Assembly: GCA_008632985.1 (NCBI GenBank)
Contig: QPGO01000047.1
Location: forward strand, 484,212-536,513
From: Psammoneis japonica
Taxonomy: Eukaryota
DNA length: 52,302 bases
Reading direction: 5' to 3'
Positions 3,001-40,161 of the stretch are shown piece by piece. The position numbers were made by a program, and so were the translations under genes. The notes under the pieces were generated by a model, which was given only the letters and a program-made list of their open reading frames with translations, did no database searches and had not been told where the DNA came from. Within the stretch, counting starts at the first letter, position 1; every line of letters begins with the position of its first letter.

Positions 3001-5075
3001 TGGTCCTGATGGCGCCACAGCCAACATCAACATGTTGTCATGCTGCTCCTCAAGAAATGCTTTTGTGTGTCAAGAAATTCTCTTTGTCAAACTCTTGACA
3101 AAACCAATGAGCAACAGTGTTGTGAAACAGGGCTTTTGCTTTGGCACTTTTGAGCCCATCCACATCATTCCTGTGATGAAGAGGGTGTGCAAGAGAGGGC
3201 TGCTGGTCTTTTGGGTCTTATGATCTTCCATGGTCAAGAGGCTCAATTTTTCAAGACCTTGTGGGCACGTCTTGGGATCAACCAAAGTTTGGAGAGATTG
3301 ATGGCACCAAGTTTTGGAGCAAGCCACCAGTGCCCAATGTGCCTCCAGCAAGTCAACGAAACTCTTGATGCAAAAGGACACCTTCAGCTAGCCTGAAAAA
3401 TCATTTGCTTGAGGGGCACTGCTGCCAACAGAAGAAGTTGCCAGTCCCAGACATTTCTTGGTGGCTGCTTTGGCCAACTTGTCCATTGTGATTGCACTGC
3501 TTTTAAACTTCTGTTTGTGCAACAACAAATGCACTCCAGAAAGGGGGCCAAATGCAGATGAACAAAGGCAGCCTCTGAGGCAGTTCCAGATGCATGACGG
3601 CACCAAGAAACAGCAAGCTGCACTTCTGCTCACATGACAAATGCACTCCAGAGAGGCCGCGGGGGGGGGGGGGGGGGGCAACATCAGTCAATGCAAAACA
3701 ATGCAGACAATCAGAGGCAGCCTCTGAGGCAGTTTTTCCAGATGCTTGGCAGCACCAAACAGCAAGCACGCAATGGCACAAAGAAACAAAAACAAGTTCA
3801 AGATGGTGGCACCTGCCACTCAGAAACCACTGGGGCAAATGCGTGAGTTTGGCAGAAATTCTGCAAAGCAAGTGAAAAACATGACACATGGGAATCAACT
3901 GGAAAACACTCATGTGCAGTGTCTCACATGAACCACAACACATGAAATCAACTTGCTGAGTTCACAACAAGAGAGTGCAAAGAGATGGCATTGTCTGCAA
4001 CAACACAACAGCAACACAACTGCACAGAGCCACAATTGCACTGCAACAACAAATGGCACAAATTTCAAATTAAAAGAAAAGATGTGCACAGAAGTCAGTG
4101 TTGATTGATGCATTGCCAGAACAACATCAAATGAAAACTGACACTGTTTTTCCTGTGACAAAACAGTGCCTCAGTTCTTGCAGACATGCATTGTTGTGTC
4201 ACAAAAAATGTGCGCAGTCATCAACAAAACAAATGTTCACTGAAAGCCAAAAAGTGCAAAAGCTCTGCAGGGTGGAGACAAAATTGAATGCCATTGAAAA
4301 CTGCATGGAAAATCTTGTGTGATGGATTGTGGATCACCTGGGGTTGAAACAGGCCACAGGCACTGCAAGTCACTTTCAAGCTTTGTCAAGCATGAAGTCC
4401 TGTGTTCGCCTGATGCCTTCAGTGCAAAGAACATTGGGGGGGGTGGCTTGTGATCAACCCAAGGGCTTGCACTCCAAGTCCTCTTCTCACTTTGTGCAAG
4501 AACAAGATTTGGTGTGGGAGTGTGTTGCATTGCTCTTCTCACAAGTCAGATTGCTGCTTTTGTCATGGAATCATGGCCAGCAAGAGCTTGAAAGAAAAGG
4601 TTTGTGCAGTGCAACAGCCACTGGCCATGATGCCCCTGCATCAATGACACATCAAAACCAGGTGTGCAGGTGGGAAAGAAAACTGGCTGAAGGCTTGAAT
4701 CCTTTGAGACTGGTGGCTTAGCTGTGCACTTGCAGAGCAGTTTGCAGAGTGCCCCAACGCAGCTCCAAAGCTGCTTTTTGGTGGAGTCAACACATCAGAG
4801 TGTAAAGCGGAGAGAGCTGAGTGAACATTTCAAAACAAGAGCTCAGCCAATCCCAGGAGGAGAGCCCAGTGCAAACCCCAGCAGCTGCTGATGCTCTGTG
4901 TGATGTGTAAGGGCCAGGGTGTGTGTCATGACGACAGAGCTCTTTTTTGAGGCCTTGGCGGTGTGCAGCCCAAGCCAGACACACTCGCTGTTCTTGCGTC
5001 AACTCTCAGCATCTTCTGAGCTCAACATGCTCTTCTTGCTTCTTGCAAAGCAGTGTGTGATGTGACATTGGCAAA
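1..5075. repeat. Degenerate TpA- and CpG-depleted block, probably an old transposon relic (family not identifiable)
   Basis: TA is nearly absent, CG is rare and TG/CA is abundant. Dense overlapping Cys/His/Gln-rich ORFs have no recognisable domain. Composition reverts to normal at about 5080. Confidence 0.7.
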
Positions 5076-7433: not shown

Positions 7434-8950
7434 TTACATGTTTCTAAAACTATTTGGAATTATGTAGAGATTCTCAAGGTTCAATGCGGCCCGCCACCGA
7501 GTCTTTTGAAGTACCAAAGGGAGTAATAGACGATTGGAGTGCGCCTTTTCTGTCCAATTCTGGCTTGTGCCTTGTGCCGTATTCCGTTTCTTGTCCCAAA
7601 AACTCACCAGTCTTTTTGATAGACAGTGACGCTTTCGCCTAGATAGTTTCAGCCCGTCTTTGCTTCGGTCATATAGTGGCCTCATCCGTACTCCGCAAAT
7701 GAAGAGGCAATGTAGAGCAGCAAGCTCAAGTGCTAGAAAGGCGTTGTCCCAGTGAGTTTCCACGTCTAAAGGCTTCATTCCTTTATTGAGATGCCTTTTT
7801 CACATCGCTGTCGACCATGCCCGGCAAGTACAAGGGACCATTGAGGTTTCATGGATTGCCGTCATTGCTCCACATCTGTTTCATGAAGCGGCTTTTCAGC
7901 TGTCAACCCATTTCCATGCTTTTCTGTCAAAATGTCAATGGGACGACCCAGCACTCACTTGTGGTGGAGCTTCATTGGCAGCTGGACAGGCCTCTTTTGT
8001 TGACAAATCTGAGGCGCCGCAATGACAACGAGGAAGGCCGGTCGCAGCAAGGTCAGACTCAGAGTGAGATGCAGCCACAAATTCTGTGCCACTTTTGACA
8101 AAGATCCCAGCATCAAATTTGCTCATTGGAAGCTGTGTTCTGAATGTCAGTCACTGCATCCTTCCGCAATTTACATCCAAACCTTCAAATGACAAAGCAA
8201 ATCTGTGGCTGAGTGATTTGCAGGAGGAAGAGGGGTGGGGCTGGGAAGATTCGAGCTCTGTTGGCAACGCAAAATGCTTTTTCTCTTCCAGCGCATCTTC
8301 AAGCTTGTTTGCAATGCCCGGCGTCATGAATGCCAAATCTTGCAAGAGCAAAAAATGAAACATTTGCAATTCATCCTCTCAGTTGAAAACAACTTTGCAC
8401 CAACCACCTTGCTCATTGCCAAGCTCCCATCTTGAAGAAGCGCGTGCGCATCATCAAAAAGGTGCTTGTTGATGTGCCCAAGGTTGTTGGTGTGCTGTTG
8501 AAGAGAAAATTGCGCATTGAATTGACTGCTGCTCTGTTTTTCAGAAAATCTTGTTCAAAGCACAGTGTGCTTTGAAAGGCACTCCGTCTTTGCTCGTCAT
8601 GTTGTTGTCCAACCACCAAGCATTGGAAGAGAACAGGCATGAGCATCAGACAGCATGGGCCAGTTCTTGAAATGTTCCATTGACACAACAGACAAAGTGC
8701 CAAAGGAAGAAACTTGAGGAAGTGCAACCCTCTGATCTCGTCTTTCAAAATTGTGTTTCGAATCATTGGGTGCACTCAGGTGTCTCCGCCACGCAAAAAT
8801 CAAGGGAAAAAGGCCAACTCTTGGTGCTCCAATGAAATGAGCAACAAATCAGCCTGGCATGCATGTCTTGCTCTTGTCCATGGACACAGAAAGCCTTTTC
8901 CATCGGGGACTGTGCATTTGTGACCAGAGCGAATCATTTCCAGGCACAGC
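7434..8950 (-). mobile_element. Possible degenerate hAT-like transposase relic
   Basis: The minus strand reads 'LDVETHWDNAFLALE', resembling the hAT D-x-x-T-R-W-N-S motif. Further upstream 'TNNLGHINKHLFDDAH' resembles the end of a BED finger. Multiple stops and frameshifts; 7790-9056 is TpA-depleted. Confidence 0.35.
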
Positions 8951-9056
8951 GGCTGTTTTGCATTTTGCGTTTTTCGTCATCTCTCGACATTGTCCCCCCA
9001 ATGCTTTCGGGGTGCAACAACGATCATGACTGCAACCTTTTGGTCAAGATGCAACA

Positions 9057-16675: not shown

Positions 16676-17109
16676 GTCTGCCATACTTTGACATGGAAAA
16701 GTGCGTTCGATTGTTTCATGCACCTGTCGCTGGATACGAAGAAAGTTTGATTTTTATAATGAATATATTTTGTTGTGCGTTAAATGCCTTCAAAGAGTTT
16801 ATCGCATAGGCTTGTACTTCTATTGCTCCACTTCTTCCGTTCTCATCCATTCGTCATGACATGTCTAAATCTTCTCCTACTTTCTCTACACTAGAAAATA
16901 CATTCTATAACACAACAAGAACGAAGTGTGAGATCCAACTATTTGGAAACACATGTGTGCGATGGCAACAGAGATTCATTCATAGACGGCGCAACTCGGA
17001 ACTCAATCTGCAACATACCTCGTCCATCCATTCGTCGACTTTTCTGGATATTTCTTCTCGCGCAGCGGCCTTTACCAATAAATGTGTTGCATCTAAATCC
17101 TTGATAATG

Positions 17110-19336
17110 CTTCTTTTCCGAACTGAATGAATTGCTTGGTGACAAGTTCCCTCCAGGGAACAGCATGATGTCCTTGATGCAAAAATGAGCACGATGCCCC
17201 AGCTGCAGCAGCAACAAAAGAATTTTCATGACAAGGGCTTTGGGTGAAGTTGTGACATCATTCTGTGACATCAGCTGACACTCTTGCACAAGGGACCACA
17301 CTCAGAAGTCCTGTCAGCACATCATCACATGTGCTGTGGGCTGTGGAAACACATTTCCTGAAATTGTTTGGCATGAAAGAGCAGCAGGGTGGGCATTTGT
17401 GTTCAAAACTGGCAGTTTGTTTTTGCACACCAATTCTGTGTGTGCAGAGTGCTGATGGTGTCCATCTGTGTGGGCAAGAAGATCAGTGCAGCTCTGTCAT
17501 TTTTTTTCAAAATGACTTTGACAAAAAATGCTTTTCAGTCATGTGGATGGACGGCAGAGATGACACCAAGGCTTGTTGTTGTCAACCACCAGCTTGTGAG
17601 CATTGCTTGAGCACGGTTGCTGGGTGGGAGCAAGGCATGTGGGAATGACAAGATGAGACAAAAAAAGCATGAAAAACATTGGCAGCAGTGTGTTGGAGCA
17701 ATGAAAAGCTTGAGCCAGCCAGTGGCTGGTGTGTTGTGTGATGCCCACTTCATTGACAAGCATGAGTTGCTTTGTTCTGCCCTCAAGGAGATTGCAGTTG
17801 CTCCAATCATTTCTGACATGTTGTTCTTCCCTTGCCTCAGATGTGCCTTGCAAATCTGTGTGGTGTGTGACAACTGGTGATGGTTGCAATGTGGAAGAGG
17901 CAATGAGGAGAAAAGGGCTGAGAAAAAATGCAAAAGAATGAGAGCAAAGCATGCCCAGAGCAGAGCTCACAACATTTCAATGTTGACCATGAGAGCTGTT
18001 GCATGGGGCCAGCTCAGAAATTTTTCTTTTGCTTTGTTGTTTGAGGAGGGTGAAAATTTCAGCTTCTTTTGTGCTGAAATTTTTAACAACATCTTCATGA
18101 GAGAGGCAGAAATCAAGTGCTGGGCCACACAGGCAGGAGGAGGAGTCGCACCTGAAAAGAGTGATGTCTGCCATTTTGTGGTGCACCCACAAGCTTGTGA
18201 GAGTGACACTGAGCCTTTCCTGTGGCAGAGCAGTGTTTTGCATGCTCTGTCAGAGCAGCCAGCATCTCAGGCCAGAAAAGTTGTTGATTGCTGTCAGCAC
18301 GCAAATCACTGCAGAGGACAGCAGCATCATTTCTTGTGGCTGGCAGGAAGATTGTGCTTGGCACAGTGGTGGTCTCACCACTGCAAGGGTGCTGTCATCA
18401 TGGTTGCAGCAGCACACCAGCCCCACACCAGTGTCTTGAGCTCAACCATTTTGTGCATGTTTGGGGGGAACTGATGTCTTTAGAGAGGTGCTGTGGCGGA
18501 GAGTCTGCTGCCTGCCAAAGGAGGAGACTGAAGCACTGCTGACAGCCTTGCTGGGGCAACTGCCAAGGTTTCATCTGATTTGAACAAAATCACCTCTCCC
18601 CAAGTCCCAAGTCTTTGATCTTCCAGATGTGAGCAATTTTTGTTGCTCAAGTCAAGCATCTGTGCTCTTGTGGGTTTTGGGGGCAGAACTTTGCATGCCA
18701 TGACCAGCTGACCACTGTGCCACCACACACCATGCCATGTGCATGTTCACACCTTGGCAAGACAACAACAAAGATTGCAGTTCAAGAAATTTCTCCCAGA
18801 CTGCCACATGAAAGAGAAAGTGCTTGGTCACAAAGGCAAGAGCAAAATGATGATTGCACTCATCCTGGGAACATCCCAAGGTGTGTGCACAGCCCCCTTT
18901 GCACCATGTTGTGTGAGAAACAATGCAAGCCCCCAGCCAGATGAGCACACTGCATTTGTCCAGAAGTGTGCAGCACAAGCTCCCTTTGGTGGGCTGAGCT
19001 TTGAAACACAGATTTTCCCAGTTCACCACCTCGCTGTTCCCTTGTCAAAAAGAGAGCATTCCAAGTGGCAGGTGATGCAGTGTTGAGTGCAGAGGCAGAG
19101 CTTGTGCCACTTCACACAATTTTTGCCCTGTCAAGGGAATGCACCCAGCTGCTGCTCTGTGTCAAAGGCAGTGCACCAGCACATTTTTGCAGCCAGCCAG
19201 TGCTTCAATCTTTTGCCTGAAACAGCCTCTCACCAAAGCAGTCTCTTCAAAGCATTGCTCTTTTTTGTTGCAGAGCATGAGCAAGAGACAGCTGGTGAAA
19301 AGAGAGTGCAAAAGGAGTGGCAGCATGGGTGATGTG
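17110..19336. repeat. Degenerate TpA- and CpG-depleted block
   Basis: Only two TA found by eye in about 2.2 kb (18084 and 18481), both in TTTA. No recognisable protein. Confidence 0.75.
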
Positions 19337-19732
19337 GACGCGTTCCAGCCCTAGGTGGGAGCTCGTAGTACTGACGTGTGACAACAATAATTTTTATCAT
19401 CCGTCGTATGTTTCGTACGTAGATTTCTACGTGTGATATTTAAAAAAAATTGTCCAGACTCGCTGTTTTGCGAAGCCCCAGACGTTTTATATAACAAATT
19501 TATAGAAATAATAATGCGCCAGTTACATTCTTCAATGTCTGAAGAATGTAACTGGCTAAGTAAAAAATGATGTACTTCAATCATGTGCGAGTTTGTGCGT
19601 TCGCAAAATTGCCTCATTTTCTGTTGGCGATCATTGACATTTTAATTACCGTATAATTTTACTACGGAGCTCGCACGTAGAAGTCTACGGGCCCAATGTC
19701 ACACGGATTCCCACCTACGTCTGGAACGCGTC
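19337..19732. mobile_element. MITE copy B, 396 bp, same TIR family as 9057-9445, 4-bp TSD TGTG
   Basis: Starts GACGCGTTCCAGCCCTAGGTGGGA and ends TCCCACCTACGTCTGGAACGCGTC. TGTG at 19333-19336 and 19733-19736. The last ~70 bp are nearly identical to copy A. Confidence 0.9.
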
Positions 19733-22023
19733 TGTGGTGGCACAGTGATTCAGGGTTTGTTCAGGGTGGTGTGGAAGCATCTTCTTCAGAGCAGCATGGA
19801 AAAGGCAGTTGACGAGGCTGGAAAGCACACAAAGGGCAAGCTTCTGGAATGATGGCACCATTTTTGACAGTGGGTGCAGCTGGCTCTGCACAGCACAAAC
19901 CAGCAATTGCACTGGCAACCTGTGCCAACATGGTGTGGTGGGCAGTGGTGAGCAATTGAGTTGACAGCAGCGCGGCTGCTCAGCCTGCTGCGCACCAACA
20001 CACCGCCATTGCTGCTCCTTGCTCCCCACAGTTCTCTCTTTTTGGTTTGTTGTTCTGTTTGGAGACTTGTTGAGAGGCGCCATTTGCCATCAATGGCCGG
20101 TGCAGAAAAGGCACAAAAAATCAAAAGAAACCCGGCACAAATTGAGTGTCCCACCTGGGTTTGCTCTGAGCCTGTGATTTTATGGCCTGAATTGTTGGGG
20201 TGACTGGGAACGTGCCTCCAGATGTCATGCACATCATGAACACAAATGTGTGCGCAGCTGGAGCTTTTGATGCAGCACCTGCTTTTGGGTCAGCCCACAA
20301 ACCAATGACGCATTCATGTTTGAAGAAATGGCATGAAAGAAATGGTGTCTTGTTGCGTCAGCATGACTTGATTGAAAATGATTCTCAATGAAATGTGTTT
20401 GTCTGCATTCACATGGAAAGCATGTGTTGAGTTCATGTGCAACTCCCATGCATGTCATTTTTTGCAGGGAACGCTCTGCTGCAAACCAACGGTTTGGAGA
20501 TCAGAGAGAAGCTGTGTTGTTGCCACTGTTTGTTGCATGCATCACACTCCCTGGGCATGTTGTTGTTGCAACCATGACAACAACAACTTGAAAAGGACTT
20601 GTGTCACACTTGCCATTGCTTTTCCTTTGTCATGTCAATGTGTTGTGTTGAATCATCTTCTGGTGTGTGTGGTGAAGTTCGTTGTCCTGTTGAGCCGCAA
20701 CATTGATTGAAGCAGGATGAACCAGAAGATGCTCCATCTCCCACGTCAAAAATGCCAACCAAGGCACCAACATTTGCACCCATTCCACAACCTGCAATTG
20801 CCCCCACATGCTCACCCACCATGACTCCAACCTTGTGACTGACATTGGTGCCAACAACTCCAGACGCGACACGCAACCTGCTGCAGTTCCCATTTTAACA
20901 ACAAGCAAACCAACCTTTGTTGTCGCTGCGCCGGAAGCACCCACCAGTGCGGCACAACCCATTCCCACCAAAAGCAATCCCACCACCATGCACCATGGTG
21001 TCCTCTGCCATCTTCTCAAAGCTGCTGTCCCACCTCACATTTCTCAGATCATGGGCAACCTTGCAAAGTGTCACTCTGCTGAACTTGCTCTCTTCCATCT
21101 TAAAGCTTTTGCCCCTCTTCATTGTCAAGCCAAGCTGCCAACTCCTCATCTTGTTCCTCACAAACTTTCATCTCTTGCAAAGACAAAAACCTCTGTGTGG
21201 AATTTTTTCTGTTGAGATGCCTTGTGACAAGGTCAGAGCAGTTGCAAAAGTTCTCCTGGAGAAACAGAGTTGCACAAGAAAGCACACATCACAGATGATG
21301 TTTCCTTTTGCATTGATGAAAACATGCAGCCACATGAAGCATGGGCTGGCCTTGCTTGTCTCCTTGCTGCTTGTGCGTGCACTGACGCCAGGCAGTGACA
21401 AATGCCATGCACCCTTTTGCTGGGAACAAGGAAATCCAGAAAAATGGAAACCCAGAAATCTGGAAAAACGGAAACCCGGAAATTCAAAAATGTGGAAACC
21501 CAGAAATCCGGAAAAACAGAAACCCGGAAATCTGGAAAAACAGAAACCTGAAAATCTGGAAAAATGGAAACCCGGAAATCCGGAAAAACGAAAACCCAGA
21601 AAATCCAGAAAAACGGAAACCCGGAAATCCGGAAAAACGGAAACCCGGAAATCCGGAAATGCGGAAACCCAGAAATCTGGAAAAATGGAAACCCAGAAAT
21701 CTGGAAAAACAGAAAGACAGAAATCAGAAAAACTGAAAAACAACCATTCCACAACCTGCAATTGCCCCCACATGCTCACCCACCATGACTCCAACCTTGT
21801 GACTGACATTGGCGCCAACAATTCCAGATGTGACACGCAACCTGCCACAGTTCCCATTTTGACAACAAGCAAACCAACCTTTGTTGTCACTGTGCTGGAA
21901 GCACCCACCAGTGCGGCACAACCCCTTCCCACCAAAAGCAATGCCACCACCATGCACCATGGTGTCCTCTGCCATCTTCTCAAAGCTGCTGTCCCACCTC
22001 ACATTTCTCAGATCATGGGCAAC
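19733..22023. repeat. Degenerate TpA-depleted block containing a 280-bp direct duplication (20780-21059 / 21744-22023)
   Basis: Three TA found by eye (20181, 20896, 21101), all TTTA/TAAA. The two 280-bp copies align without gaps. Confidence 0.8.
21430..21740. repeat. Minisatellite, ~24-bp unit GGAAACCCGGAAATCCGGAAAAAC (8-bp subunits), about 13 units
   Basis: Directly visible tandem array. Variants are mostly CG->CA/TG (CCAGAAA, CTGGAAA, ATGGAAA). Confidence 0.92.
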
Positions 22024-22299
22024 TGACAGAAATCGAAGGCAAATGGCAAGAATTCAAACAACAACTCCTTGCTGCTGTCTAAATGGCAGATGAGTCTCCG
22101 CTCAGAGACCGTCACAGGAGCCGAAAGACGTGTAAGTCGGCATGATCGGGCCACTGTTGTTGTTCTTGTGAGCCTTGTGGCTCGAAAGCAAACTGCATCG
22201 CGCGCGAACGCGCGGAACTAAAGCACACAAAACTGTGCGCGGTAAACTAAACAGCGCGCGATACTTCGCGCGCATCCAAATCCTGTTCAAATCCTGTCA
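22024..22299 (-). repeat. 3' LTR (276 bp)
   Basis: TGACAG...CTGTCA; aligns without gaps to 28808-29083 with 16 differences. Confidence 0.95.
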
Positions 22300-25200
22300 C
22301 TCCCCAGTTTGCTTGAGGAGCCACAGAAACAGATTCGATTTCGGATGGAATGAAGTTCCAGAACATGAGAGGGCGGAGAAGGTCCCAGATTTGGGAGTAA
22401 CCCCAATGCTTGCTGAGAATGTCAGCAGGGTTGCGGGAGCCTTCGATGAAGTGGAACTCAAGGTAACCAGAGGCAATTGCCTCACGCACACGGTGGAACG
22501 ACAGTGCGGTGTGTCGCTTGTGTAACTTGGAGTGCGGGATGGTGGCACTGTCTACAACCGACTTGTTGTCACCGAACATGTAACTGACATTACGGATCGG
22601 GACGCCAAGGTGGCGCAGGGTGATGCGCAGGTCGACAATCTGCTCGACACAATTCCTTGCGGCAACAAATTCAGATCCGCAGGTTGCAGTCTCCACGGTG
22701 GCTTGTTTCTTGGAGAACCAATCAGCCGGGAATTTGTTGAGGAAGTGGAGCATTCCCATGACAGAGCGTCCGGTGAGCATGCAATGGCACAAGTTTGCAT
22801 CGACGCAGTGGGTGGCAGTGACGAACTTGCCAAGGGGCGGTGGAGCGTCCTTCGGGATCATCTCTTCTGCTTCACCATACACGGAATGCATCCATTCACA
22901 GGCCGGAGCAGGGAGATCCGAACAGTCGGGCTCTTCCGTACGAACGCGGAGAGCACCGTGTCGCATCTTGGAGAGGTGCCCACAGACGCGTTTGGCACGA
23001 TCCAAGTGGCCTTGACGGGGCGCAGCTCGGAAGCTAGAGAGTGACATGACAGCCGTGGTGATGTCAATTCGACCAAGGGACACTGCCCATTGGAGTGAAC
23101 CAACAAGAGACTGGAACTTGTGAATGCCATCGGGTCCCAGCAGTTCGGAAGTGTCCAGTTCGGGGTGGTCACCCTTCTCTAGAGGTGACAGGGCGTTGGT
23201 GGCAGGTTTCTCCCCAAACAATCGGGCGCAGCTGTCGACCATGCGCTCGATGTACTTGCGCGGAGACAGACACAAGGTTCCGTCGGGGTCCCGGGAAAAG
23301 TCGCAACCCAGATGGAACTCAATGGGTCCCGTGCCCTTGAGCTTGAACTTGCACTTTTCAATGAGAGTGTCGATGAAAGATTGAGGGTCCTTCATGGCAA
23401 TGGCGAGGTCATCCACATAAACGCCAATGCATTCACAGTGGTCGCCGTTCCTGCGCATCCAAATGTCGGGTTCGGCGCGGCAGGGGAAGAAGCCTTCAGC
23501 TCGCAGGCAGTCGGCGAAGCGCTCGTGCCAGCGGAGACCGGAACTGCGAAGTCCATACAGTGCCTTGTGGATGACAAGGATGTGTCCTTCGAGTTTGCCA
23601 AATTCGGGTCCAGCTACAATGTAAAGCTTCTCCTTGGTGGTGGCTTCAAGGCAGGCATTGCCAATGTCGGTGGCCCATGTCTCCAGCTCGTTGAGTTCGG
23701 CCAGGAAAATCATCAGCCGAAGGCCACGGAGGGAGACTACTCCGGAGTAAACACCATCGACAGGTACGTCCGTGAGGTGCCCGTCGGCTACGAGTCGTGC
23801 CTTGTGGCGACCGTCGTGTTTCACGTCGAACACCAGGTGCACTCGGATCTTCTTGTGTCCCGCAGGAGGAGTGGAAGACTTGAAGGGCCCGCAGTCATGG
23901 AAGACTTCGTATTCGTCGAGTTGGTCCATCTCGAGATTAGTTGCGTCTCCCCACTTGCGGTTGCCGTTGCGTTCGTCCAGTGACATGGCGTGTTTGTAGT
24001 TCCGGGGAACTTCGCATCCGCACTTGCAACGAGGTGCAGTGCGGAAGGAGCGAAGCTTGGCTTGGTTGGCCATGCGAAATGGCTTCTTTTGGCGCCTCGC
24101 GACAGTGCGGAACCGCTTCCAGCCATCCGTGTCGAGGAGTCCGTTCTCTCGTGCATAGATGGCACAGGTGACGGGGTCGTCCTTGGCGATGATGGCAAGA
24201 GGTTCGGACGTGATCTCCCCACTTTCCCATTCAAGCATGATGTTGTAGCTTGAGCCTTTCCAGGTTGGGTCGTGAGGCTTCAGAGGTCCTTCGTGTGATG
24301 CGATGCGTCGAAATTTCCAAATGGTGGTGTCTTCGTCTTCTTGCTCAATGTGATTCATGATGTCATTGTGGGCAAGGACTTCCTCGCATTCGTCATTGTT
24401 GACAGAGCAGACGAACTTAGTGAGCTCGGGATTGCCGTTCACTTTCCATTCGTGGTCTTCGACGGCCTTGACGATGCGAGCTCTGTGGCGTTGTCCATCC
24501 TCTTGTGGCTGCATGAGGAAGGTACGTCCAATGATGTCTTGCGGATCGAAAACTGGCATCTTGGGTGTCCTGATCTCCCCATCAGTAGAATCGACGGGGT
24601 TGTCGTCATGGCGAGATTTGATGATGGGTTCAGGTGGCTCCCCATCAGGAGGATCAAGACGCAGGTTTCGAACGGCAGGATCGGGGGCAGCAGAGCGAAC
24701 GTTGGACCGGCAGAGGATCTTTTGAGTCTCGTCAGATAGGATCTTGAAGGTCATCTGGTGGCCGACGTGCTCAGCAATGCCAACAAAGCGTCCACGCAAC
24801 TCACGGGATTCGGACGGCCAATCGGAGTCATCGAGGTGGAAGCACACTGGTTCCCACCAGTGAAAGCGAAGCAATGGGCTGATGTCCGGGGTGGATCCAG
24901 TGAGAGTCTCGAGGGGCGTGCGCCAGTGGAGACGTGGGGACGCTGTGTGGTTGAGCATGAAGCACACGCACATGAGCGCCAGGAGCCATGTGTGGGCGGG
25001 CGAACCAAAACGGTCCATGACAGTGTTCGCCATGCGCTTCACGGTCTGGTGTTGACGTTCGGCAAAGTTTTGGTGTTGCTGGTGAGGCTCACTTTGCCAG
25101 CTGGAGATGAAGAGGGCGCGCAGGATCCCGAGCACTTTGTTGCTGATCTCAACTTGAGCACGGTCGCCAATGAGTTTGGATGGTGCACCACGTTCACGGA

Positions 25201-27868
25201 TCTGATCCTCGAGTGTGTTGACAAACTCTTTGTCCGTCTTGGTGCCGCAGATGTCAGTGACGGTAGACTCGGTGCCAACAAACAGTTGGGTGCTGGTGCA
25301 ACCAGAGTCGACGGCCGGGGTGTCGGCATGAACGGTGTCAGTGGCGACAGGCTCGTTGCGGCGGTGCACATTAAGGGCGGGGTTGGGTGATTTGCAGGCC
25401 TTGCGAAGGTGTGCACCGGCGGGCATGCGGGCGCACTGCGTGGTGCAGTCAAAAGTACGACGGACCGCATCGGCAGGTAGGAAGCCAAAGCAAGGCCGAA
25501 GAGACTCGAAGGGGGGGTCCTTGGGCTTGACAGTGCGCTCTGGAGGTGGAACGTCATCGCCCGTGGGGTCAATCGCATGCAGATGACACTCGTAGAACAC
25601 GTCGTCGTTCGGAATGAGGTGATCATCGAGGGCGGACGCGTGATCGTCAGACAAGGAAGCGGACAAGATGGTCTCGTTGACAACGACACGGTGACGGCAG
25701 TTGCCGCATTCGTCAAATGGGTTGGCAGTGGGATCGTCCTGCAGGTCAGAGATCGCGTCGTACCACTGGTCGTCGTCAGTGACAGAGTGATCGAGTGCGG
25801 AAGGGTCCCACGTGTCATCACCGGTGAGGATGACATGGGGCAGGGTGTCCCATTCGGCGTCAGTGCAAGGTCGCATGGCAACATGAGGCAGGCCAGCCTT
25901 GATGTCAATGGGGATGACACAGCCATCAGGAGTGGCAACACGTTGCAAGCCGTTGGGCACCTTGACAGAGCGATCGTTGACATCCTGTTTGCACCATTCG
26001 AGCTGGCCGCAGGAATGGATGGTCTTGCCCTTTCCCGTGCATGCGTGCTGATGGAGGATGGCGATGACGGGACCACGCTGGGTCTCAATGACGGCACCAG
26101 CGGTGACAATGGGGATGTCCACCAATTGATGATCGTCAATGCCCTGAACGTCGACTTGGCGAGAGGTGCGTGCGATGACACGAACGTCGTCGCCAGCAAT
26201 GCCGCCGTTGGCCCCACGATCGACCAGAGCGCCAGTGCGTGTGGAGCGATGAGCAGAGGCAGAGCAAATGACATTGTGGTTGTCAACGCGGCGGCAAGTG
26301 CGGCCGTTAAGTTCCATGTTATCTGCAGAAGCTGGCGGGGTAGAGGAAGCGGCGGATGGCCCCGGTCGACTGGCATTGGGGGCTTGGTTAGGAGACAACA
26401 GACGTTGCAGATCACCGGGTGGCAGTGGCTTGCGCTTGGTGAGGTGCGCCAGGATGGGATCATCCGAAGTGGCCAAGTTGACATCACCGTCACTCCCAAG
26501 GTGTTGGTCGTGAAGGTTGGCCGCAACAGACTCATGGCAGTTGCTGGCTCGCGGGTTGCGGGGAGGCGGGCGAGAGTGCTCAAGGATGATCGCCTTGGAG
26601 GAATCGGGCAACGAATCCCAGAGCCGTTGGTGGTCGGGAGGGAGACGTCTCCATTGGACACCGGTGAGGCTGGGACCGCGGGTGTGGGCAGCATTGGCGT
26701 GAAGGACGTCAACGTCACTGTCAATGTCGCAGAACACATCGTCGGACGGTTCCTCGGAGTGGACGTCGTGTGCGTGTGTGGCGCGTCGGGGAGCTCGAGG
26801 TGTCGTCTTGGGTTGAAACGTGCTGTCGCACTGAGCTGCCGCGGAGAGGAGCAAGCCACAGTGTTGATCGTATGTGAGGCTCTTGCCACTCTGCGTACGA
26901 TGCTGATCAGCTTGGTTCTTGACAGCACGGAGTTCCTCGACAGGGTGCACGGCATTCTCGAGCATGACGCATTTCTGTCCTTCAGAGAAGTGGTCACTGG
27001 CGGGGATGAGTGCCTCGCACTTGCGCAACTGATCTTGCCAATGAAGGATGAACCCGTGGGTTGGACCTTTCCAAGTGCCATCACCAAGACGTGCGGTGGT
27101 GAGGTGCGTGAGCAGGGTGGAGGACTCGACAGATGCGCGGGTGGAGGCAAGCGCGTGCTCAGACAAGGAGCGGCAGACGGTCTGTGCGTCAGAAGACCCC
27201 ACATTTTCGCGAATGAGAGCCTTGCCCTTGTCGGTGAGAAGGATGCGTTCGAAGATGGCGAACATGCACTTTTGCTGTTCAGCAAAGAGCAGTTTGTCTT
27301 CGGGGCTGGTCGGTTTGTACGACGAGTCTAGAATGCACTCGACGTCTTGGGCACGGGCTTGTGCCACAAGTGAGGTGTGCCAAGTGTGCCACTGCTTGTC
27401 GGATTTGAGAGCCGTGAAAGCGGTGGGATCACGCTTGATGCCTCGCTTGAAGTCTCGCACCGGGTCGCGTGCCTTGGTCGGGTTGGTGACATGTGGAGGT
27501 GCAAGGGGTGAGCTGCCGATGGACACAGAGGACATGCAGTCCGGGCTGAGGCGGCAGGCAAGGAACTCGTCATGCGCGAACAAAGAGGAGTCGTTGGCAA
27601 CGTCAAGACCTTTGTGTGCTTTGACAATGTGCAGGCTGGCTAGTGCTGCTAACATGTTCTTATAACCACGGGGCAAAGGGATTGCATCAGTGCCGTTGTC
27701 GCACTCAAGCGAGTCGATTTGGGACGGTGTGAACGTGAATGGTTCCTGATGCGAGTCCGTGCCGTCTTGGGCCAAAGCCAAACGAAGAGGACTCCCAGCA
27801 CCTTGGGCAAGCACGGTTCCAACAACGTGCTCGAAACCATCGGTTTGTTGCTGACGAGTGAGAACCAT
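22247..27868 (-). CDS. Copia gag-pol polyprotein; frame open but hypermutated and probably non-functional
   Basis: Protease 'LVDRGANGG'; integrase 'VATDT...DRAQ...QNFAER'; RT 'HKARLVADG', 'KALYGLRSSG', 'VYVDDL'; RNase H 'FGDNKSVV...NPADILSK'. Many conserved Tyr are Cys/His. Confidence 0.93.
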   Translation of the reverse strand: MVLTRQQQTDGFEHVVGTVLAQGAGSPLRLALAQDGTDSHQEPFTFTPSQIDSLECDNGTDAIPLPRGYKNMLAALASLHIVKAHKGLDVANDSSLFAHDEFLACRLSPDCMSSVSIGSSPLAPPHVTNPTKARDPVRDFKRGIKRDPTAFTALKSDKQWHTWHTSLVAQARAQDVECILDSSYKPTSPEDKLLFAEQQKCMFAIFERILLTDKGKALIRENVGSSDAQTVCRSLSEHALASTRASVESSTLLTHLTTARLGDGTWKGPTHGFILHWQDQLRKCEALIPASDHFSEGQKCVMLENAVHPVEELRAVKNQADQHRTQSGKSLTYDQHCGLLLSAAAQCDSTFQPKTTPRAPRRATHAHDVHSEEPSDDVFCDIDSDVDVLHANAAHTRGPSLTGVQWRRLPPDHQRLWDSLPDSSKAIILEHSRPPPRNPRASNCHESVAANLHDQHLGSDGDVNLATSDDPILAHLTKRKPLPPGDLQRLLSPNQAPNASRPGPSAASSTPPASADNMELNGRTCRRVDNHNVICSASAHRSTRTGALVDRGANGGIAGDDVRVIARTSRQVDVQGIDDHQLVDIPIVTAGAVIETQRGPVIAILHQHACTGKGKTIHSCGQLEWCKQDVNDRSVKVPNGLQRVATPDGCVIPIDIKAGLPHVAMRPCTDAEWDTLPHVILTGDDTWDPSALDHSVTDDDQWYDAISDLQDDPTANPFDECGNCRHRVVVNETILSASLSDDHASALDDHLIPNDDVFYECHLHAIDPTGDDVPPPERTVKPKDPPFESLRPCFGFLPADAVRRTFDCTTQCARMPAGAHLRKACKSPNPALNVHRRNEPVATDTVHADTPAVDSGCTSTQLFVGTESTVTDICGTKTDKEFVNTLEDQIRERGAPSKLIGDRAQVEISNKVLGILRALFISSWQSEPHQQHQNFAERQHQTVKRMANTVMDRFGSPAHTWLLALMCVCFMLNHTASPRLHWRTPLETLTGSTPDISPLLRFHWWEPVCFHLDDSDWPSESRELRGRFVGIAEHVGHQMTFKILSDETQKILCRSNVRSAAPDPAVRNLRLDPPDGEPPEPIIKSRHDDNPVDSTDGEIRTPKMPVFDPQDIIGRTFLMQPQEDGQRHRARIVKAVEDHEWKVNGNPELTKFVCSVNNDECEEVLAHNDIMNHIEQEDEDTTIWKFRRIASHEGPLKPHDPTWKGSSYNIMLEWESGEITSEPLAIIAKDDPVTCAIYARENGLLDTDGWKRFRTVARRQKKPFRMANQAKLRSFRTAPRCKCGCEVPRNYKHAMSLDERNGNRKWGDATNLEMDQLDEYEVFHDCGPFKSSTPPAGHKKIRVHLVFDVKHDGRHKARLVADGHLTDVPVDGVYSGVVSLRGLRLMIFLAELNELETWATDIGNACLEATTKEKLYIVAGPEFGKLEGHILVIHKALYGLRSSGLRWHERFADCLRAEGFFPCRAEPDIWMRRNGDHCECIGVYVDDLAIAMKDPQSFIDTLIEKCKFKLKGTGPIEFHLGCDFSRDPDGTLCLSPRKYIERMVDSCARLFGEKPATNALSPLEKGDHPELDTSELLGPDGIHKFQSLVGSLQWAVSLGRIDITTAVMSLSSFRAAPRQGHLDRAKRVCGHLSKMRHGALRVRTEEPDCSDLPAPACEWMHSVYGEAEEMIPKDAPPPLGKFVTATHCVDANLCHCMLTGRSVMGMLHFLNKFPADWFSKKQATVETATCGSEFVAARNCVEQIVDLRITLRHLGVPIRNVSYMFGDNKSVVDSATIPHSKLHKRHTALSFHRVREAIASGYLEFHFIEGSRNPADILSKHWGYSQIWDLLRPLMFWNFIPSEIESVSVAPQANWGVTGFEQDLDAREVSRAV

Positions 27869-28792
27869 GGCAGACAAAAGTGGTGTCAGGACAATCAATT
27901 CTGGTCGGGAAGCGAAGGTGGACTCGAAACTTGGGTGAGAACAGACTTGACTTGAAACAGACTTGACTTGAAATCTTGAACTGTCTTAAAATCAGAAGTC
28001 GCCGGGCTTTGTTGTCCCGTTCGTTGTCAAGTGCTAAACTTCCCATCCGGACCGTAGAGTTGTGCCGGCACGTCCGAACCCGCAGCCAGCGGCGCTTTGG
28101 GTTGCTTGCGAGCGGAGTAGCGGGTTGTAAACCCCTGCAGGTGAGCTGACTGGAGGTGGACAAGACCCCCGAACCGTTCTCATTTTATGTCGGTTGGATT
28201 TCCCGATCAGGCTGGCCAGTTGACGCAGGCGTCAGGCGCTGTGGACGAACGAACAAACGCGGGAAAGCACCCTCGCCCCAACGCAGGCTGCAATCACGGC
28301 TGCTTGCTCTCACAGTCGTCCTCGTGGACCTAGTAGAACTGTAGAGCACCAGCAGTCCGGGGTAGATCAGGTACAATGGACTCGGTGTGCTTGTAGAGTG
28401 GCAGCAAAACCGCAGTCCGAAGAGTGGGTACAGGTTCTTGGCCGTGAAGATATGTATATATATATATGTCTTCAGCGACGAAGATCCTTGAATATGTAGG
28501 GTTCTTGACCGTTAACCGATGAATAGGTATATCAAGGGATGAGGATCAAGGATAGACTTGGATATGACCGTTGAATGTATGTCTTCAGCGATCAAAGGTA
28601 GTACAATCAATCCAGATATCCAGCGGTAAGGAGACTTGACGGTGACGTTAACTTCCTGCCGATGCCCTGGTATTGAATGCGCGTAGACTTGCCGATGTAT
28701 GTAGAATATATACGGAGGTCCACGTAGAATTGAAATAGCGTCGTTGGTAAATCAACGACGACGATGGCGGTTGCTCAATGGGTTGACAATGA

Positions 28793-28807
28793 GCAAGACT
28801 GTTAATC
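28793..28807 (-). promoter_or_regulatory. Putative primer-binding site complementary to a tRNA-Asn(GTT) anticodon arm
   Basis: The element strand reads GATTAACAGTCTTGC immediately after the 5' LTR. Its complement GCAAGA-CTGTTAA-TC has the form of an anticodon stem plus a CT-GTT-AA loop. Confidence 0.6.
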
Positions 28808-29083
28808 TGACAGAAAATGAAGGCAAATGGCAAGAATTCAAACAATAACTCCTTACTGCTGTCTAAATAGCAGATGAGTCTCCGCTCAGAGACCGTTACA
28901 GGAGCCGAAAGACGTGTGGGTCGGTATAATCGGGCTACTGTTATTATTCTTGTGAGCCTTGTGGCTCGAAAGCAAACTACATCGCGCGCGAACGCGCGGA
29001 ACTAAAGCACACAAAACTGTGCGCGGTAAACTAAACAGCGCGCGACACTTTGCGCGCATCCAAATCCTGTTCAAATCCTGTCA
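28808..29083 (-). repeat. 5' LTR (276 bp)
   Basis: TGACAG...CTGTCA; retains most TA dinucleotides lost in the 3' LTR. Confidence 0.95.
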
Positions 29084-29952
29084 CAAGCAATGAGCCCTTC
29101 TTGCATTGTCACTCTGGGCACTTGCGCTGCCCCAAGATTGATGGCATCTTGCTCACCCCAAATGTGCAGCAGCCACCAGAGCAGAGGAGCCAAGAAAAGG
29201 TGTGATGATGCCAAGCATCACATGAACCAATTTCAGAAAAAGAACTTGTGGTTGCTCTGGGTGGCCATCAGCTGGAAACCTCAACTCAGATGGCACTGAA
29301 AACAATTGCAAAGAAGTGGCAGTGGTGTTTCTGACAACACAGCATGTCTGCAAAGTGGTGGATTTGCTCGCCAACATGAACAGAGCACAAGTTGTTGCAA
29401 ACATGATGCTTGAGTGCAGTTGTTTTGTTGTGTGCTCTTTTCCACATCCCCAGCTTGATGGCTCACCTTGATGACTTCTCATGTCCACACCAGCACTTTG
29501 CCATCTTCCTTCTTTTGACATCATGGCATCTCATCATTGGTTTGTGCCACACTGATCAGCTTTTCATCATCATCCAGAGCTGCTTCATGTGAGGTTGTCA
29601 TTGCTGTCAAAGTTTTCTGACAAGTTTGCCTTGGTCCAGCTGCATTTCCAGGCTCTGGCACAATGCACTCTCCAAGAATTGCACAGGTTGGAAAGCTGCC
29701 AGGTTTGCGCACTCGCTGTTTCAATGATTTCTGCATCAAAAATGTGCAATCAACAGGTCACTGAGTGTCACATGTGGCCAACAGCTTCCCCAACAATGCC
29801 AAGCACACAATGTTGTTAGAGACACAAAAAAGGCAGTTGTGTTGGACAGCAGGTGACATTGGTGCAAAAAGACATTTGGTGCAAACAAGCAAGCAACTCT
29901 CATGGACTTCAGGAAGAACAACAACCAATTTGCAAGTCATGTTTGCCATTTC

Positions 29953-29984
<32 letters not shown>

Positions 29985-30975
29985 GACATGTGGCCAGGGT
30001 GCTGGTGCCTTTTTGCACAGTGGATTGACAGAACATGCAGCTGAGATTGCAAAATTCCCCTGCATGTCTCTGGGCATGGCTTGGTCAATGAGAAACAATG
30101 CCAAAAGGTGGCAGGAGTGGTGCCATGGAAGGTGTTGCAAACAGAAAATGCTTTTTTGCACTTGTCTTCACATGCGCATGTTTTCTCTTTTTCTGGAACT
30201 CCAGCACCGGGCAGACAAATTCTCGCTAAGATGAAAACTCACAAGATGAGGTGTTGCACATTTGAAGCCATTGCAACACCATCATCCAAGATGTGCATTT
30301 TCATCCCAGGTGAGAAACTTTTGGACAAATCACGAGGTTTTTTGCGCGCTTCTGTGCAGCACACACACATGCCCAGAGAACAAAATGCCAGCTGCGCAGG
30401 TGGCCAGCACAGTTGAGTTGTCCATGAATCAATGAAAGAAGAACAAGCACAGCCAACATTTGCAAAAATTGTGAATCAGCAGAAACTGCCTTCACAAATG
30501 TGAAAATTGCAGCCATTGTTCATTGTTCTTCTTGCCAAGTGCAGAAACATGTTGCAGACACAGCCAACACCATGCTGTCAACGAGGCTCGCAAAGTTGCA
30601 GAGTGTGCATTTGCACTGCACCTCTCCAGCTTTTGCCAAATGAGCCCAGAGGCAGGCCAGTGCACCTTTGCCACTTTGGCCAAGAAATCTCGCTCACGTG
30701 CTCGCCCTCTTGCAAAAACCTCTGGCAGCAGGCAGTGTCTTTTGATGTGCGGCGCTGAGGCAAACATTTGTCAATGCAGGTGCAGGGGTGCTGGGTGGCA
30801 CCCAGAGAGATGTTTTTGGTCTGGACCCATGCTGGCCAGTCGAAGAACCAAACAGAGAACACAACGGCTCCAAATGATGCACACCCACAACTTCTTCTGT
30901 GACTCTCCAACAATTCTTTCCTCCCTTGCCTTCCATCTCTTCTCTGGCTTTTGTGACCTTTCGCCACTGATGGAT
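29084..30975. repeat. Degenerate TpA-depleted block with (GTT)n microsatellite at ~29953-29985
   Basis: TA is nearly absent (seen at about 29817 and 30227). Overlapping Cys/His-rich ORFs have no recognisable domain. Confidence 0.7.
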
Positions 30976-31089
30976 CAAGTTACCTCGACATGCACCACCG
31001 CGTAACAAACAAAAGAAAAGAACCCACAAAAAATGCCTCTGTCTCTCAAACAAAGCATGGCAAAAGAAAATAGAACGTCCAAGCGTGTG

Positions 31090-31146
31090 CACCCGATGTG
31101 GGGATCGAACCCACGACCACACGGTTAAAAGCCGGGCGCTCTACCA
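31090..31146 (-). tRNA. tRNA-Lys(TTT), 5'-truncated/interrupted in the D-loop
   Basis: Minus strand TGGTAGAGCG-CCCGG-CTTTTAA-CCGTG-TGGTC-GTGGG-TTCGATC-CCCAC-ATCGGGT-G gives the D-arm 3' half, TTT anticodon, T arm and 3' acceptor strand. T-runs lie ~20 nt downstream. The first ~16 nt are missing. Confidence 0.88.
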
Positions 31147-38553: not shown

Positions 38554-38901
38554 ACAGTGCCTCAAGAAATACAGTACCTCAAGACACCATCACGGAACAC
38601 GGTACATTATACCTCAAGTTCGTCTCATTTCTTGTCAAGTGGTGCATGACTGTCCTCTCTGTACTGCAGTAAGGTTGCGGTGTGCGCTGGATGAGTTGAG
38701 ACAGTGCCTCAAGAAATACAGTACCTCAAGACACCATCACGGAACACAGTACATTATACCTCAAGTTCGTCTCATTTCTTGTCAAGTGGTGCATGACTGT
38801 CCTCTCTGTACTGCAGTAAGGTTGCGGTGTGCGCTGGATGAGTTGAGACAGTGCCTCAAGAAATACAGTACCTCAAGACACCAGCACGGAACACGGTACA
38901 T
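38554..38901. repeat. 147-bp tandem repeat, ~2.4 near-identical copies
   Basis: ACAGTGCCTCAAGAAATACAGTACC starts at 38554, 38701 and 38848. Confidence 0.92.
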
Positions 38902-39798: not shown

Positions 39799-40161
39799 CT
39801 CACCTATCGTCGATTCGAGCGTGAATGGTCTTGGTAACCAACTCCTTCAGTATTGAGGCAGTCTTCTTCTCATTTACTTCTCCGGTGAGTCTATGAAACA
39901 TCTCAGTCCATGAGATCATCTCAAAGTACCTACTGTATATTCAGCATATATTGTATCAATTATTCCTCGTCTCTTTTCTCTCGTTCTGCCTGCAGCACGA
40001 CGTACTGCACTGTTCCTAAATCATGAGTTTACACAACCTACAGTAAACTTATTCTTGGTATCTCGTACATCGGTACAAACAACAGCGAAAGCAAAAGTCC
40101 ACCGTACGCCAAGTACTTGCCGCACCACTCTGTTTCTCCCGGTCGACATCATCATCTACCT

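Follow-up and report, generated by a model that had tools for sequence, protein, structure and literature searches.

A TpA-restricted A:T to G:C mutation signature in a copia-type retrotransposon and neighbouring non-genic DNA of a diatom

Introduction

What removes the dinucleotide TpA from a mobile element and from the non-genic DNA around it, while the genes alongside keep theirs? The question is raised by 52,302 nucleotides of Psammoneis japonica (assembly GCA_008632985.1, contig QPGO01000047.1, positions 484,212 to 536,513; this whole stretch is referred to as the window), which hold one full-length long terminal repeat (LTR) retrotransposon, on the minus strand at 22024-29083. A first interpretation made from the letters of this DNA (the sequence-only reading) had attributed the deficit to an A:T to G:C process at TpA acting on both strands of repeats. 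The present analysis indicates that the element and the surrounding non-genic DNA probably underwent TpA-specific A:T to G:C mutation on either strand, by a process kin to that of the chlorarachniophyte Bigelowiella natans (Mettrop et al., bioRxiv 10.64898/2026.01.13.699255, 2026). The data establish the specificity of the change, its direction, its occurrence on both strands and its arrangement in tracts.

The copia-type element

The sole long open reading frame (ORF) of the element (minus strand, 22247..27985, 1912 aa) contains the copia-type reverse transcriptase domain RVT_2 (PF07727) at residues 1374-1585 (Pfam, E 1.3e-27). Judged by this predicted domain, the element is a Ty1/copia-type LTR retrotransposon of a diatom, and its copia lineage also includes a named reverse transcriptase of Nitzschia inconspicua. 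Because this ORF is read from the minus strand, the terminal copy at 22024 is the 3' LTR and the copy at 28808 is the 5' LTR. Further open frames of 762 and 616 codons are found within the element in other phases. Its parts are:

22024..22299, minus strand: 3' LTR, the TpA-depleted copy (6 TpA), delimited by LTR comparison and TG...CA ends
22247..27868, minus strand: gag-pol coding region, open but decayed (ATG 27868-27866, stop 22249-22247; carries RVT_2; frame open from 27985)
27869..28807, minus strand: 5' leader, TpA-poor up to ~28250-28350, then of normal to high TpA density as far as the LTR
28808..29083, minus strand: 5' LTR, the TpA-rich copy (14 TpA), delimited by LTR comparison and TG...CA ends

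The target-site duplication (TSD) of Ty1/copia elements is absent, as the sequence-only reading had noticed, with GCAAC on the left of the element and CAAGC on the right. Membership of copia is unaffected by this absence, which points to recombination or decay. The element resembles the described diatom Ty1/copia (CoDi) elements in its RVT_2 domain and TG...CA LTR ends, in an LTR identity within their range of 94-100% and in the existence of TSD-less recombinants, as given in the sections of that paper used here, in which neither 'hypermut' nor 'deaminat' occurs (PMC2806351).

TpA depletion in the element and in the DNA around it

By dinucleotide content the window falls into three parts. The gene-bearing rest (30,705 bp) has 1,356 TpA, an observed/expected ratio (O/E) of 0.635, together with a CpG O/E of 1.013 and a TG+CA O/E of 1.17. 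In the element body (22024-28250; 6,227 bp) there are 58 TpA (O/E 0.200), with CpG at 0.947 and TG+CA at 1.35. The most extreme values belong to five older blocks (12,492 bp measured), which retain 26 TpA (O/E 0.030), have a CpG O/E of 0.213 and reach a TG+CA O/E of 1.81. The blocks are:

1..5075, no strand assigned: block A, TpA- and CpG-free, running past the window start
7790..9056, no strand assigned: block B, TpA-free with intermediate CpG (CpG O/E 0.49 in 8001-9000)
17106..19336, no strand assigned: block C, TpA- and CpG-free by dinucleotide profile
19733..22023, no strand assigned: block D, TpA- and CpG-free, the left flank of the element, including a 283-bp direct repeat pair and a tandem array
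29084..31000, no strand assigned: block E, TpA- and CpG-free, the right flank of the element, ending ~90 bp before a tRNA-Lys gene

Block edges are sharp, being resolved within ~100-250 bp and lying close to genes with a TA O/E of 0.5-0.8. The three degrees of depletion can also be placed in time order. About two thirds of the TpA is gone from the element, which keeps normal CpG; block B has a TpA O/E of 0.01 and CpG at 0.49; and the oldest blocks have lost both, so the TpA process must be much faster than CpG decay. Block B is at a stage between those of the element and of the oldest blocks.

The older blocks had been described as almost TA-free repeats beside normal genes. Their freedom from TA and the normality of the genes (TA O/E 0.635) are upheld, but the label of repeat is not. 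None of 11 block ORFs had a Pfam match at E<=0.001 (the weakest-E matches being at 0.026-0.073), Rfam returned 0 matches on the blocks, and tblastn of six copia polyproteins against the window gave seven rows, all within 22000-29100 and none in the blocks. The blocks combine little self-similarity with no protein homology, and the flanks of the element are low-copy (summed contig depth ~150, against ~60 for a single contig).

Direction of change in the coding region

Direction was read from protein outgroups. A homolog search with ORF residues 600-1912 returned 1398 relatives at E<=0.001, and the best 120 of them (56-67% identity, mostly from metagenome assemblies) were aligned. A column was taken as conserved when at least 80% of the 120 homologs share the same residue, which gave 698 columns, 36 of them tyrosine (Tyr). 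The copy in the window differs at 72 of the 698. At the Tyr columns it has 10 Tyr, 15 Cys (all TGY), 8 His (all CAY), 2 Phe and 1 Trp; Tyr has become Cys or His at 23 of 36 columns, compared with a change at 46 of the 662 other conserved columns (Fisher p 2.6e-20). Over the same 36 columns, 119 of the 120 homologs, taken as a control, show three or fewer Cys/His. The polyprotein has only 0.94% Tyr (homologs 3.86+-0.31%, range 2.9-4.6%) and as much as 2.98% Cys (homologs 0.92+-0.17%, range 0.5-1.3%). Against the nearest homolog, 26 Y>C and 12 Y>H changes were counted, and the reverse changes C>Y and H>Y were both 0. Since Tyr codons TAY have become TGY or CAY relative to the outgroups, TA is ancestral, TG/CA is derived and both strands are affected. 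The sequence-only reading had named an ancestral TG/CA in outgroups as the outcome that would overturn it; in the coding region it is TA that proves ancestral, at 23 of 36 Tyr columns.

The 72 mismatches comprise 19 A>G at TpA, 8 T>C at TpA, one that is either of these or a transversion, 3 other A>G, 4 at CpG, 21 transversions and 16 multi-step changes, the last two classes being expected between families about 60% alike. Single-step transitions at conserved columns number 35, of which 27-28 are at TpA and 30-31 are A>G or T>C. Both strands were struck in the Tyr codons (15 TGY, 8 CAY) as in the LTR (6 TG, 4 CA). The loss of Tyr codons (23-26 of 36) agrees with the dinucleotide deficit of the element, where 58 TpA stand against ~184 predicted at the gene-level O/E. 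A hand count of same-strand clustering gave 13 runs among the 23 Tyr sites where ~11 are expected, and hence no processive one-strand tracts.

A protein from a different public assembly (P0064; 59% identical) has Cys/His at 11 of the 36 conserved Tyr columns. Compared with its own nearest relative (P0097; 75% identical) it shows 7 Y>C and 6 Y>H, with 0 and 1 in the reverse direction, which suggests a milder case of the same signature in another organism. A metagenome scan with the window polyprotein gave 26 pattern matches and one distant locus (49% identity, without LTRs), which was of no help in polarising the LTR.

Specificity and sequence context

The loss is confined to TpA. In genes, element and old blocks respectively, the strand-symmetrised O/E falls for TA (0.63, 0.20, 0.03), while AA/TT (1.13, 1.10, 1.30), AT (0.95, 0.92, 0.77) and GA/TC (1.09, 1.18, 0.92) show no such collapse. 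General GC-biased conversion is rejected by these values. Polymerase eta, which the sequence-only reading had offered as one candidate, is likewise rejected, since WA>WG errors need a loss of both TA and AA and AA/TT is not depleted (O/E 1.10-1.30).

There is, in addition, a kinetic preference around the target. ATAN survives least in the element (0.00-0.13 of gene density) and C/G/T-TA most (0.27-0.47). Of the 26 TpA that survive in the old blocks, 23 stand in TTA or TAA, including 9 TTAA as opposed to 40 in 1356 in gene regions (Fisher p 8e-8). This suggests that a target A is less readily changed when a T stands two positions 5' of it or, equivalently, when an A follows immediately. The strand-resolved flanking preference at 38 polarised sites showed no clear pattern, in a sample that is underpowered and constrained by Tyr codons. 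Examples of surviving TpA are at positions 1091, 1844, 2315, 2943, 3504, 4071, 18084, 20896 and 21101.

The LTR pair

The two LTRs are 276 bp each, both end in TG...CA and are 94% identical (22023-22300 against 28807-29084). They differ at 16 of 276 positions (15 transitions and 1 transversion), and the earlier tally of 12 TA against TG/CA, 2 CG/TG and 2 others was reproduced exactly. At ten sites the 5' LTR has TA where the 3' LTR has TG (6) or CA (4); at two the 3' LTR has TA and the 5' LTR TG or CA; at two more the 3' LTR has CG and the 5' LTR TG; the remaining two are at 22033 and 22135. The earlier split of ten TA lost from the 3' LTR and two from the 5' LTR is confirmed, the orientation coming from the minus-strand ORF. 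At or beside TpA lie 13 of the 16 differences as A/G or T/C. Only 28 of the 276 positions of the 5' LTR fall within TpA, and the chance that at least 10 of the 16 differences would fall there is 5e-7 (binomial). If the pair stems from one insertion, then of 16 ancestral TpA, 10 have gone from the 3' LTR and 2 from the 5' LTR, and the per-site rate at TpA would be roughly 10- to 100-fold higher than outside TpA, where 4 differences occur in 276 positions.

Sibling copies of the family

Contigs from four runs (X1-X4), all of one sample in one study, were aligned to the window at 80% likeness; this sample is probably the source of the assembly. The X1 contigs that match the element number 14,641, with a summed word depth of 6e4-2e5 against ~150 in the flanks (a sum, which is not a copy number), and the copia family appears highly repeated. 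Among 488 variable places, 40 were considered, all below 24957; 38 of them were polarised by the protein alignment, and the LTR sites among them are 22262 and 22264.

Copies of the family differ from one another at the same TpA sites. At residues 1703, 1477, 1416 and 1413 the window keeps the Tyr or Val found in 119-120 of the 120 homologs, and 55-71% of family depth reads Cys, His or Ala. At residues 1792 and 1670 the window has His at a conserved Tyr, and about half of the depth departs from it in both bases of the dinucleotide. T|G stands in the window at 1410/1411 and 1294/1295, where 94-100% of the family has C|A; the homologs have Ser in 120 of 120 and Ile in 91 of 120 at these places, so the ancestral state was T|A. 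Differences between copies of the TG-versus-CA kind and of the kept-versus-lost kind therefore mean that the same TpA sites were struck independently in different copies, with either outcome. At silent sites, T|A>C|A is common to 94-100% of family depth.

Tracts and the spared 5' end

Depletion is not uniform along the element. It peaks in the 5' and middle parts of the ORF (conserved Tyr is kept at 0/5, 2/12 and 8/19 columns in successive thirds from 5' to 3'), remains marked in the 3' LTR and ends abruptly near 28250-28350. The leader upstream of this point and the 5' LTR have normal TpA, and the interval 28001-29000 has a TA O/E of 0.91, exceeding the gene average. Two readings of the spared 5' end are offered: a mutation tract that stopped short, or replacement by recombination or gene conversion with a young copy.

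The second reading, in which an older mutated copy supplied the 3' LTR and body and a younger unmutated copy the 5' leader and 5' LTR, is quite possible, though we would not put it first. The missing TSD, the abrupt step in TpA density near 28250-28350 and the high repetition of the family suggested by contig depth (6e4-2e5 against ~150 in the flanks, again not a copy number) all speak for it. So does the near-identity of 28183-28802 to family contigs, with 2/620, 1/254 and 6/564 differences where the ORF differs by 2-4%. Furthermore, TSD-less elements arising by inter-element recombination are documented in Phaeodactylum, in the part of the CoDi paper drawn upon (PMC2806351). The DNA on either side, however, is TA-free in the same way and could be a single block that was interrupted, and a tract stopping short of the 5' end yields the same picture. 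A recombinant origin is compatible with TpA-specific mutation of the element, but it removes the LTR pair as a clock. The premise of the sequence-only reading that the LTR changes all postdate one integration is accordingly weak, given the missing TSD and a 5' region of 600-900 bp nearly identical to family contigs beside an ORF that is 2-4% different.

A further exception within the mutated domain is an insertion resembling a miniature inverted-repeat transposable element (MITE):

19337..19732, no strand assigned: MITE-like insertion of 396 bp with 24-nt terminal inverted repeats, carrying 32 TpA and normal CpG within the TA-free domain

A second copy at 9057-9445, beside a TA-free block, is also normal in TpA and CpG. 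The two copies, of ~390 bp, have 24-30-nt terminal inverted repeats starting GACGCGTTCCAG, with conserved ends and a divergent middle; they have possible 4-bp flanking duplications, TGTG and AACA. As for a duplication trigger of the kind known from repeat-induced point mutation (RIP), contig depth is that of a highly repeated family for the copia element and that of low-copy DNA for the TA-free flanks, and the two-copy MITE is untouched. Thus the earlier claim of an A:T to G:C process on both strands of repeats holds for direction, TpA specificity and strands, and is not supported as to the targeting of repeats, in view of the low-copy flanks and the untouched MITE. The pattern would suit action in episodes, as seen in B. 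natans, as well as targeting guided by sequence.

Two of the blocks have features of their own. Block D contains 283-bp direct repeats at 20777-21059 and 21741-22023 (95.4% identical) around a tandem array of 24-bp period (21430-21742, ~13 copies), a layout resembling a small terminal-repeat element. The second of these repeats abuts the copia LTR, and the pair differs at 13 sites, chiefly CG versus TG/CA. A tRNA-Lys(UUU) gene (31089-31163, minus strand) lies ~90 bp past the right edge of block E and could be a boundary element of the mutated domain.

Proposed process

A DNA-level process is proposed that would convert A:T to G:C at TpA on either strand, leaving TpG or CpA. It would act in sharply bounded tracts, faster than CpG decay, and approach completion with time, as suggested by the O/E of 0.03 in the old blocks. 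There, decay of methylated CpG would then remove CpG too, both routes ending in TG/CA. The mutations would presumably occur in the chromosomal DNA of this organism, and their purpose may be the disabling of silenced or foreign DNA. As to chemistry, the candidate is an ADAT/TadA-like deaminase that would turn adenine into inosine at TpA; taken on its own, this step has in our view a little under an even chance. The natural tRNA target of ADAT/TadA, A34, always follows U33.

One consequence concerns the reading frame. No sense codon can become TAA, TAG or TGA through A>G or T>C, so a dead element keeps its open frame of 1912 codons, and the frame is a by-product and not a sign of function. In line with this, TAA and TAG fall from ~17 per kb each in gene regions to ~5 per kb each in the element.

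Comparison with known systems

To our knowledge, no eukaryotic genome-defence mutator driving A:T to G:C was known before 2026. In mutation-accumulation lines of B. natans, 230 of 231 new mutations in integrated nucleocytoplasmic large DNA virus (NCLDV) and virophage sequences were A>G or T>C, all of them at TpA (Mettrop et al., bioRxiv 10.64898/2026.01.13.699255, 2026). The TpA mutation rate was ~6e-7 per site per generation, in some lines only; the genome contains 124 TpA-depleted, CpA+TpG-enriched clusters; TpA-poor coding sequences are enriched for reverse-transcriptase and DDE domains; and the authors propose an ADAT2-like DNA adenine deaminase (10.64898/2026.01.13.699255). Full-text literature searches returned this preprint as the sole direct precedent and no report of the signature in diatoms, which are mentioned nowhere in it (10.64898/2026.01.13.699255). 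The remark of the sequence-only reading that it knew of no named system with this signature is thus overtaken, as the preprint describes the same one (10.64898/2026.01.13.699255).

The two cases agree in restriction to TpA, in TpG and CpA outcomes, in regional action beside normal neighbours and in association with reverse transcriptases or transposases. All of the B. natans features tested by sequence were found here, namely dominance of A>G/T>C, TpA restriction, occurrence on both strands and confinement to regions that include the copia element. They differ in lineage, a rhizarian (chlorarachniophyte) there and a stramenopile (diatom) here, and in evidence, since de novo mutations were observed there whereas the signature here is fossil. 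The depletion is also deeper here, at an O/E of 0.03 compared with 0.45 in the NCLDV region and a cluster cut-off of 0.43. Moreover, the clearest target here is a highly repeated LTR retrotransposon, and the old blocks also lose CpG. The diatom case is regarded as a real, new and more extreme instance of a kind known from one 2026 preprint.

Among older systems, ascomycete RIP is similar in that transitions accumulate at a particular dinucleotide, mobile DNA is inactivated where it stands and dinucleotide indices become strongly skewed. However, RIP changes C to T at CpA and creates TpA, whereas here TpA is destroyed and CpA/TpG created. Fungal RIP is accordingly rejected by direction, with Tyr TAY to TGY/CAY at 23 of 36 columns and reverse changes of 0 and 0. 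Decay of 5-methylcytosine (5mC) at CpG is seen in the old blocks as CG>TG/CA depletion (O/E 0.21) and accounts for most differences between the 283-bp repeats, but it cannot remove TpA and is slower here (element CpG O/E 0.95 at a TpA O/E of 0.20). The earlier argument that neither RIP nor CpG decay can account for TA loss is borne out by the TA to TG/CA direction. Repressive 5mC on diatom transposable elements (TEs) is described in the portion of the source consulted (PMC12344493).

APOBEC3 and ADAR offer another parallel, as deaminases that hypermutate retroelements. Their substrate is RNA or a single strand of a replication intermediate, whereas both DNA strands are affected here, without a gradient of the replication type and in non-retroelement DNA too. 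ADARs and tRNA adenosine deaminases favour a 5' U. APOBEC3-like editing of cDNA is rejected for want of a one-strand bias (19 versus 8) and of a 5'-to-3' gradient (0/5, 2/12, 8/19), and ADAR-type RNA editing fixed by retrotransposition because T>C on the sense strand makes up 8 of the 27 polarised TpA changes and the LTRs differ. In dinoflagellates, another SAR (stramenopile, alveolate and rhizarian) lineage, 5-hydroxymethyluracil (5hmU) is a TpA-preferring base modification that marks silenced TEs; in the sections of the source used here it is an epigenetic mark and not a reported mutation signature, and TpC is unaffected in the window (PMC11572971).

Alternative explanations

After recombination, which bears on the history of the insertion, the next alternative concerns the base that is attacked. 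A dioxygenase of the TET/JBP type could oxidise T in TpA of silenced DNA to 5hmU or 5-formyluracil (5fU), and mispairing with G or faulty repair would give T>C on either strand. The symmetric outcome would be indistinguishable from A>G on the opposite strand. 5-formyluracil does mispair with G; oxidised thymine is, however, a weak mutagen beside deaminated adenine. Dinoflagellate 5hmU, as described in the part of the source drawn on, marks transposable elements and substitutes for T with a preference for TA and TC, which lends the idea some support (PMC11572971). That preference includes TC, though, and TC/GA is not depleted here (GA/TC O/E 0.92-1.18); nor was 5hmU or a TET/JBP enzyme encountered for diatoms in the literature surveyed. 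Thymine chemistry is judged unlikely.

Editing before integration is much less probable still. A restriction factor of the APOBEC3 or ADAR kind would deaminate adenine in cDNA or RNA during reverse transcription, so that copies were born hypermutated. The sparing of the 5' LTR and leader and the striking of the 3' LTR look as if the 3' LTR had been single-stranded longest, its minus strand being copied last, as textbook reverse transcription would suggest. Nevertheless, both strands were changed (19 A>G and 8 T>C on the sense strand; 4 and 6 in the 3' LTR), and the changes do not increase from 5' to 3', Tyr being kept at 0/5, 2/12 and 8/19 columns in a gradient that runs the wrong way. TA-free blocks without retroelement homology are also affected, the LTRs differ from each other, and the B. 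natans mutations arise in resident chromosomal DNA (10.64898/2026.01.13.699255).

It is hardly credible that the signature is an artefact, in which modified bases of heterochromatin (e.g., methylated A in TpA, 5mC in CpG) were miscalled as TG/CA in a long-read assembly. Both depleted dinucleotides are palindromic, are possibly modified and 'convert' to TG/CA, and the runs come from the sample that probably gave the assembly. Against this, X1 seems to behave like accurate short reads (the library type is not recorded): it has none of the 12 one-base indels listed (12 of 56), all of which are in the small runs X2-X4, and its contigs match the TA-free flanks at 190/191 and 343/344 letters. In addition, the element has normal CpG and yet depleted TpA, and the long host ORFs are intact.

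Least credible of all is the opposite direction, in which a natively TA-poor family gained TA in its 5' LTR by C>T at CpA/TpG (RIP-like, or by decay of non-CpG methylation): one related LTR variant does have CA at 28846 and 28001-29000 is above the gene average (TA O/E 0.91), but conserved Tyr is lost at 26 of 36 columns, Tyr (0.94%) and Cys (2.98%) lie outside the homolog ranges, reverse C>Y and H>Y changes are 0 and 0 against the nearest homolog, and the TA-rich leader is common to family contigs, so that for the coding region this direction is largely refuted.

Several points nonetheless weigh against TpA-specific mutation of this element at this locus. A family snippet with a loose end at 28822 (runs X1 and X3) has CA at 28846, where the 5' LTR has TA, and at the ten LTR sites the reverse direction is only disfavoured, the outgroup test being one of the coding region. 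The absence of a TSD together with a 5' end near the family consensus means that the two LTRs may derive from different copies. Judging by the silent changes common to the family, some of the depletion came down from a master lineage that is still propagating and was not gained at this locus. Both the MITE and the first 800 bp at the 5' end of the element retain TpA although they lie within the mutated domain, and targeting is thus neither simply positional nor continuous. The present data fit adenine deamination and thymine-side chemistry alike. Finally, the evidence consists of assembled contigs of one sample.

Implications

A signature of this kind in a diatom means that the process is not confined to one species and reaches at least two SAR lineages. 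Diatoms offer sequenced genomes, methylomes and knock-out tools, and a search for the enzyme becomes feasible through comparison of species that show the signature with species that lack it. For annotation, TpA-erased DNA is nearly devoid of TAA and TAG and therefore yields long spurious ORFs and dead elements that seem intact (1912 codons here), while dates from LTR divergence of such elements will be badly wrong. The GC content and dinucleotide statistics of diatom repeats need reinterpretation. A natural DNA adenine deaminase, if true, would be of interest to the base-editing field.

More speculatively, and with considerable doubt, diatoms may possess a dedicated DNA adenine deaminase, chromatin- or RNA-guided, which as a natural adenine base editor would act within bounded tracts to strip silenced or invading DNA of its TpA. 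Chlorarachniophytes would have the same system, which would be old in SAR and perhaps related to the TpA-directed modification of dinoflagellates. Active retrotransposon lineages would in response purge their silent TpA, as the silent T|A>C|A changes at 94-100% of family depth would illustrate.

Neighbouring genes and other features of the window

Host genes, by their closest named relatives, assign the window to a diatom. For the neighbouring ORF with a DENN domain (879 codons), the best named relatives, at 30-40% identity, come from Nitzschia, Bacillariaceae, Pseudo-nitzschia, Cylindrotheca, Fragilaria, Fistulifera and Chaetoceros. Host ORFs in the window are long and without interruptions. 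Pfam searches on 25 further window ORFs found ordinary host genes and no deaminase, the domains including DENN, ligand-gated channel, cyclophilin, GH53, amino-acid transporter and 2OG-Fe(II) oxygenase (PF13640 type). The last of these, at 49684-50364 on the minus strand (PF13640, E 2e-11), is of the prolyl-hydroxylase type, with no link to base modification.

An assembly gap of 867 N occupies 45224-46090, and the ORFs listed across it are artefacts. Two stretches of ~720 bp (32803-33518 and 40139-40875), 86.6% identical, lie within ORFs without a Pfam domain; each carries a 48-bp tandem duplication, and they are probably paralogous host genes. A 147-bp tandem repeat at 38554-38901 (2.4 copies, 98% identical) has normal TpA.

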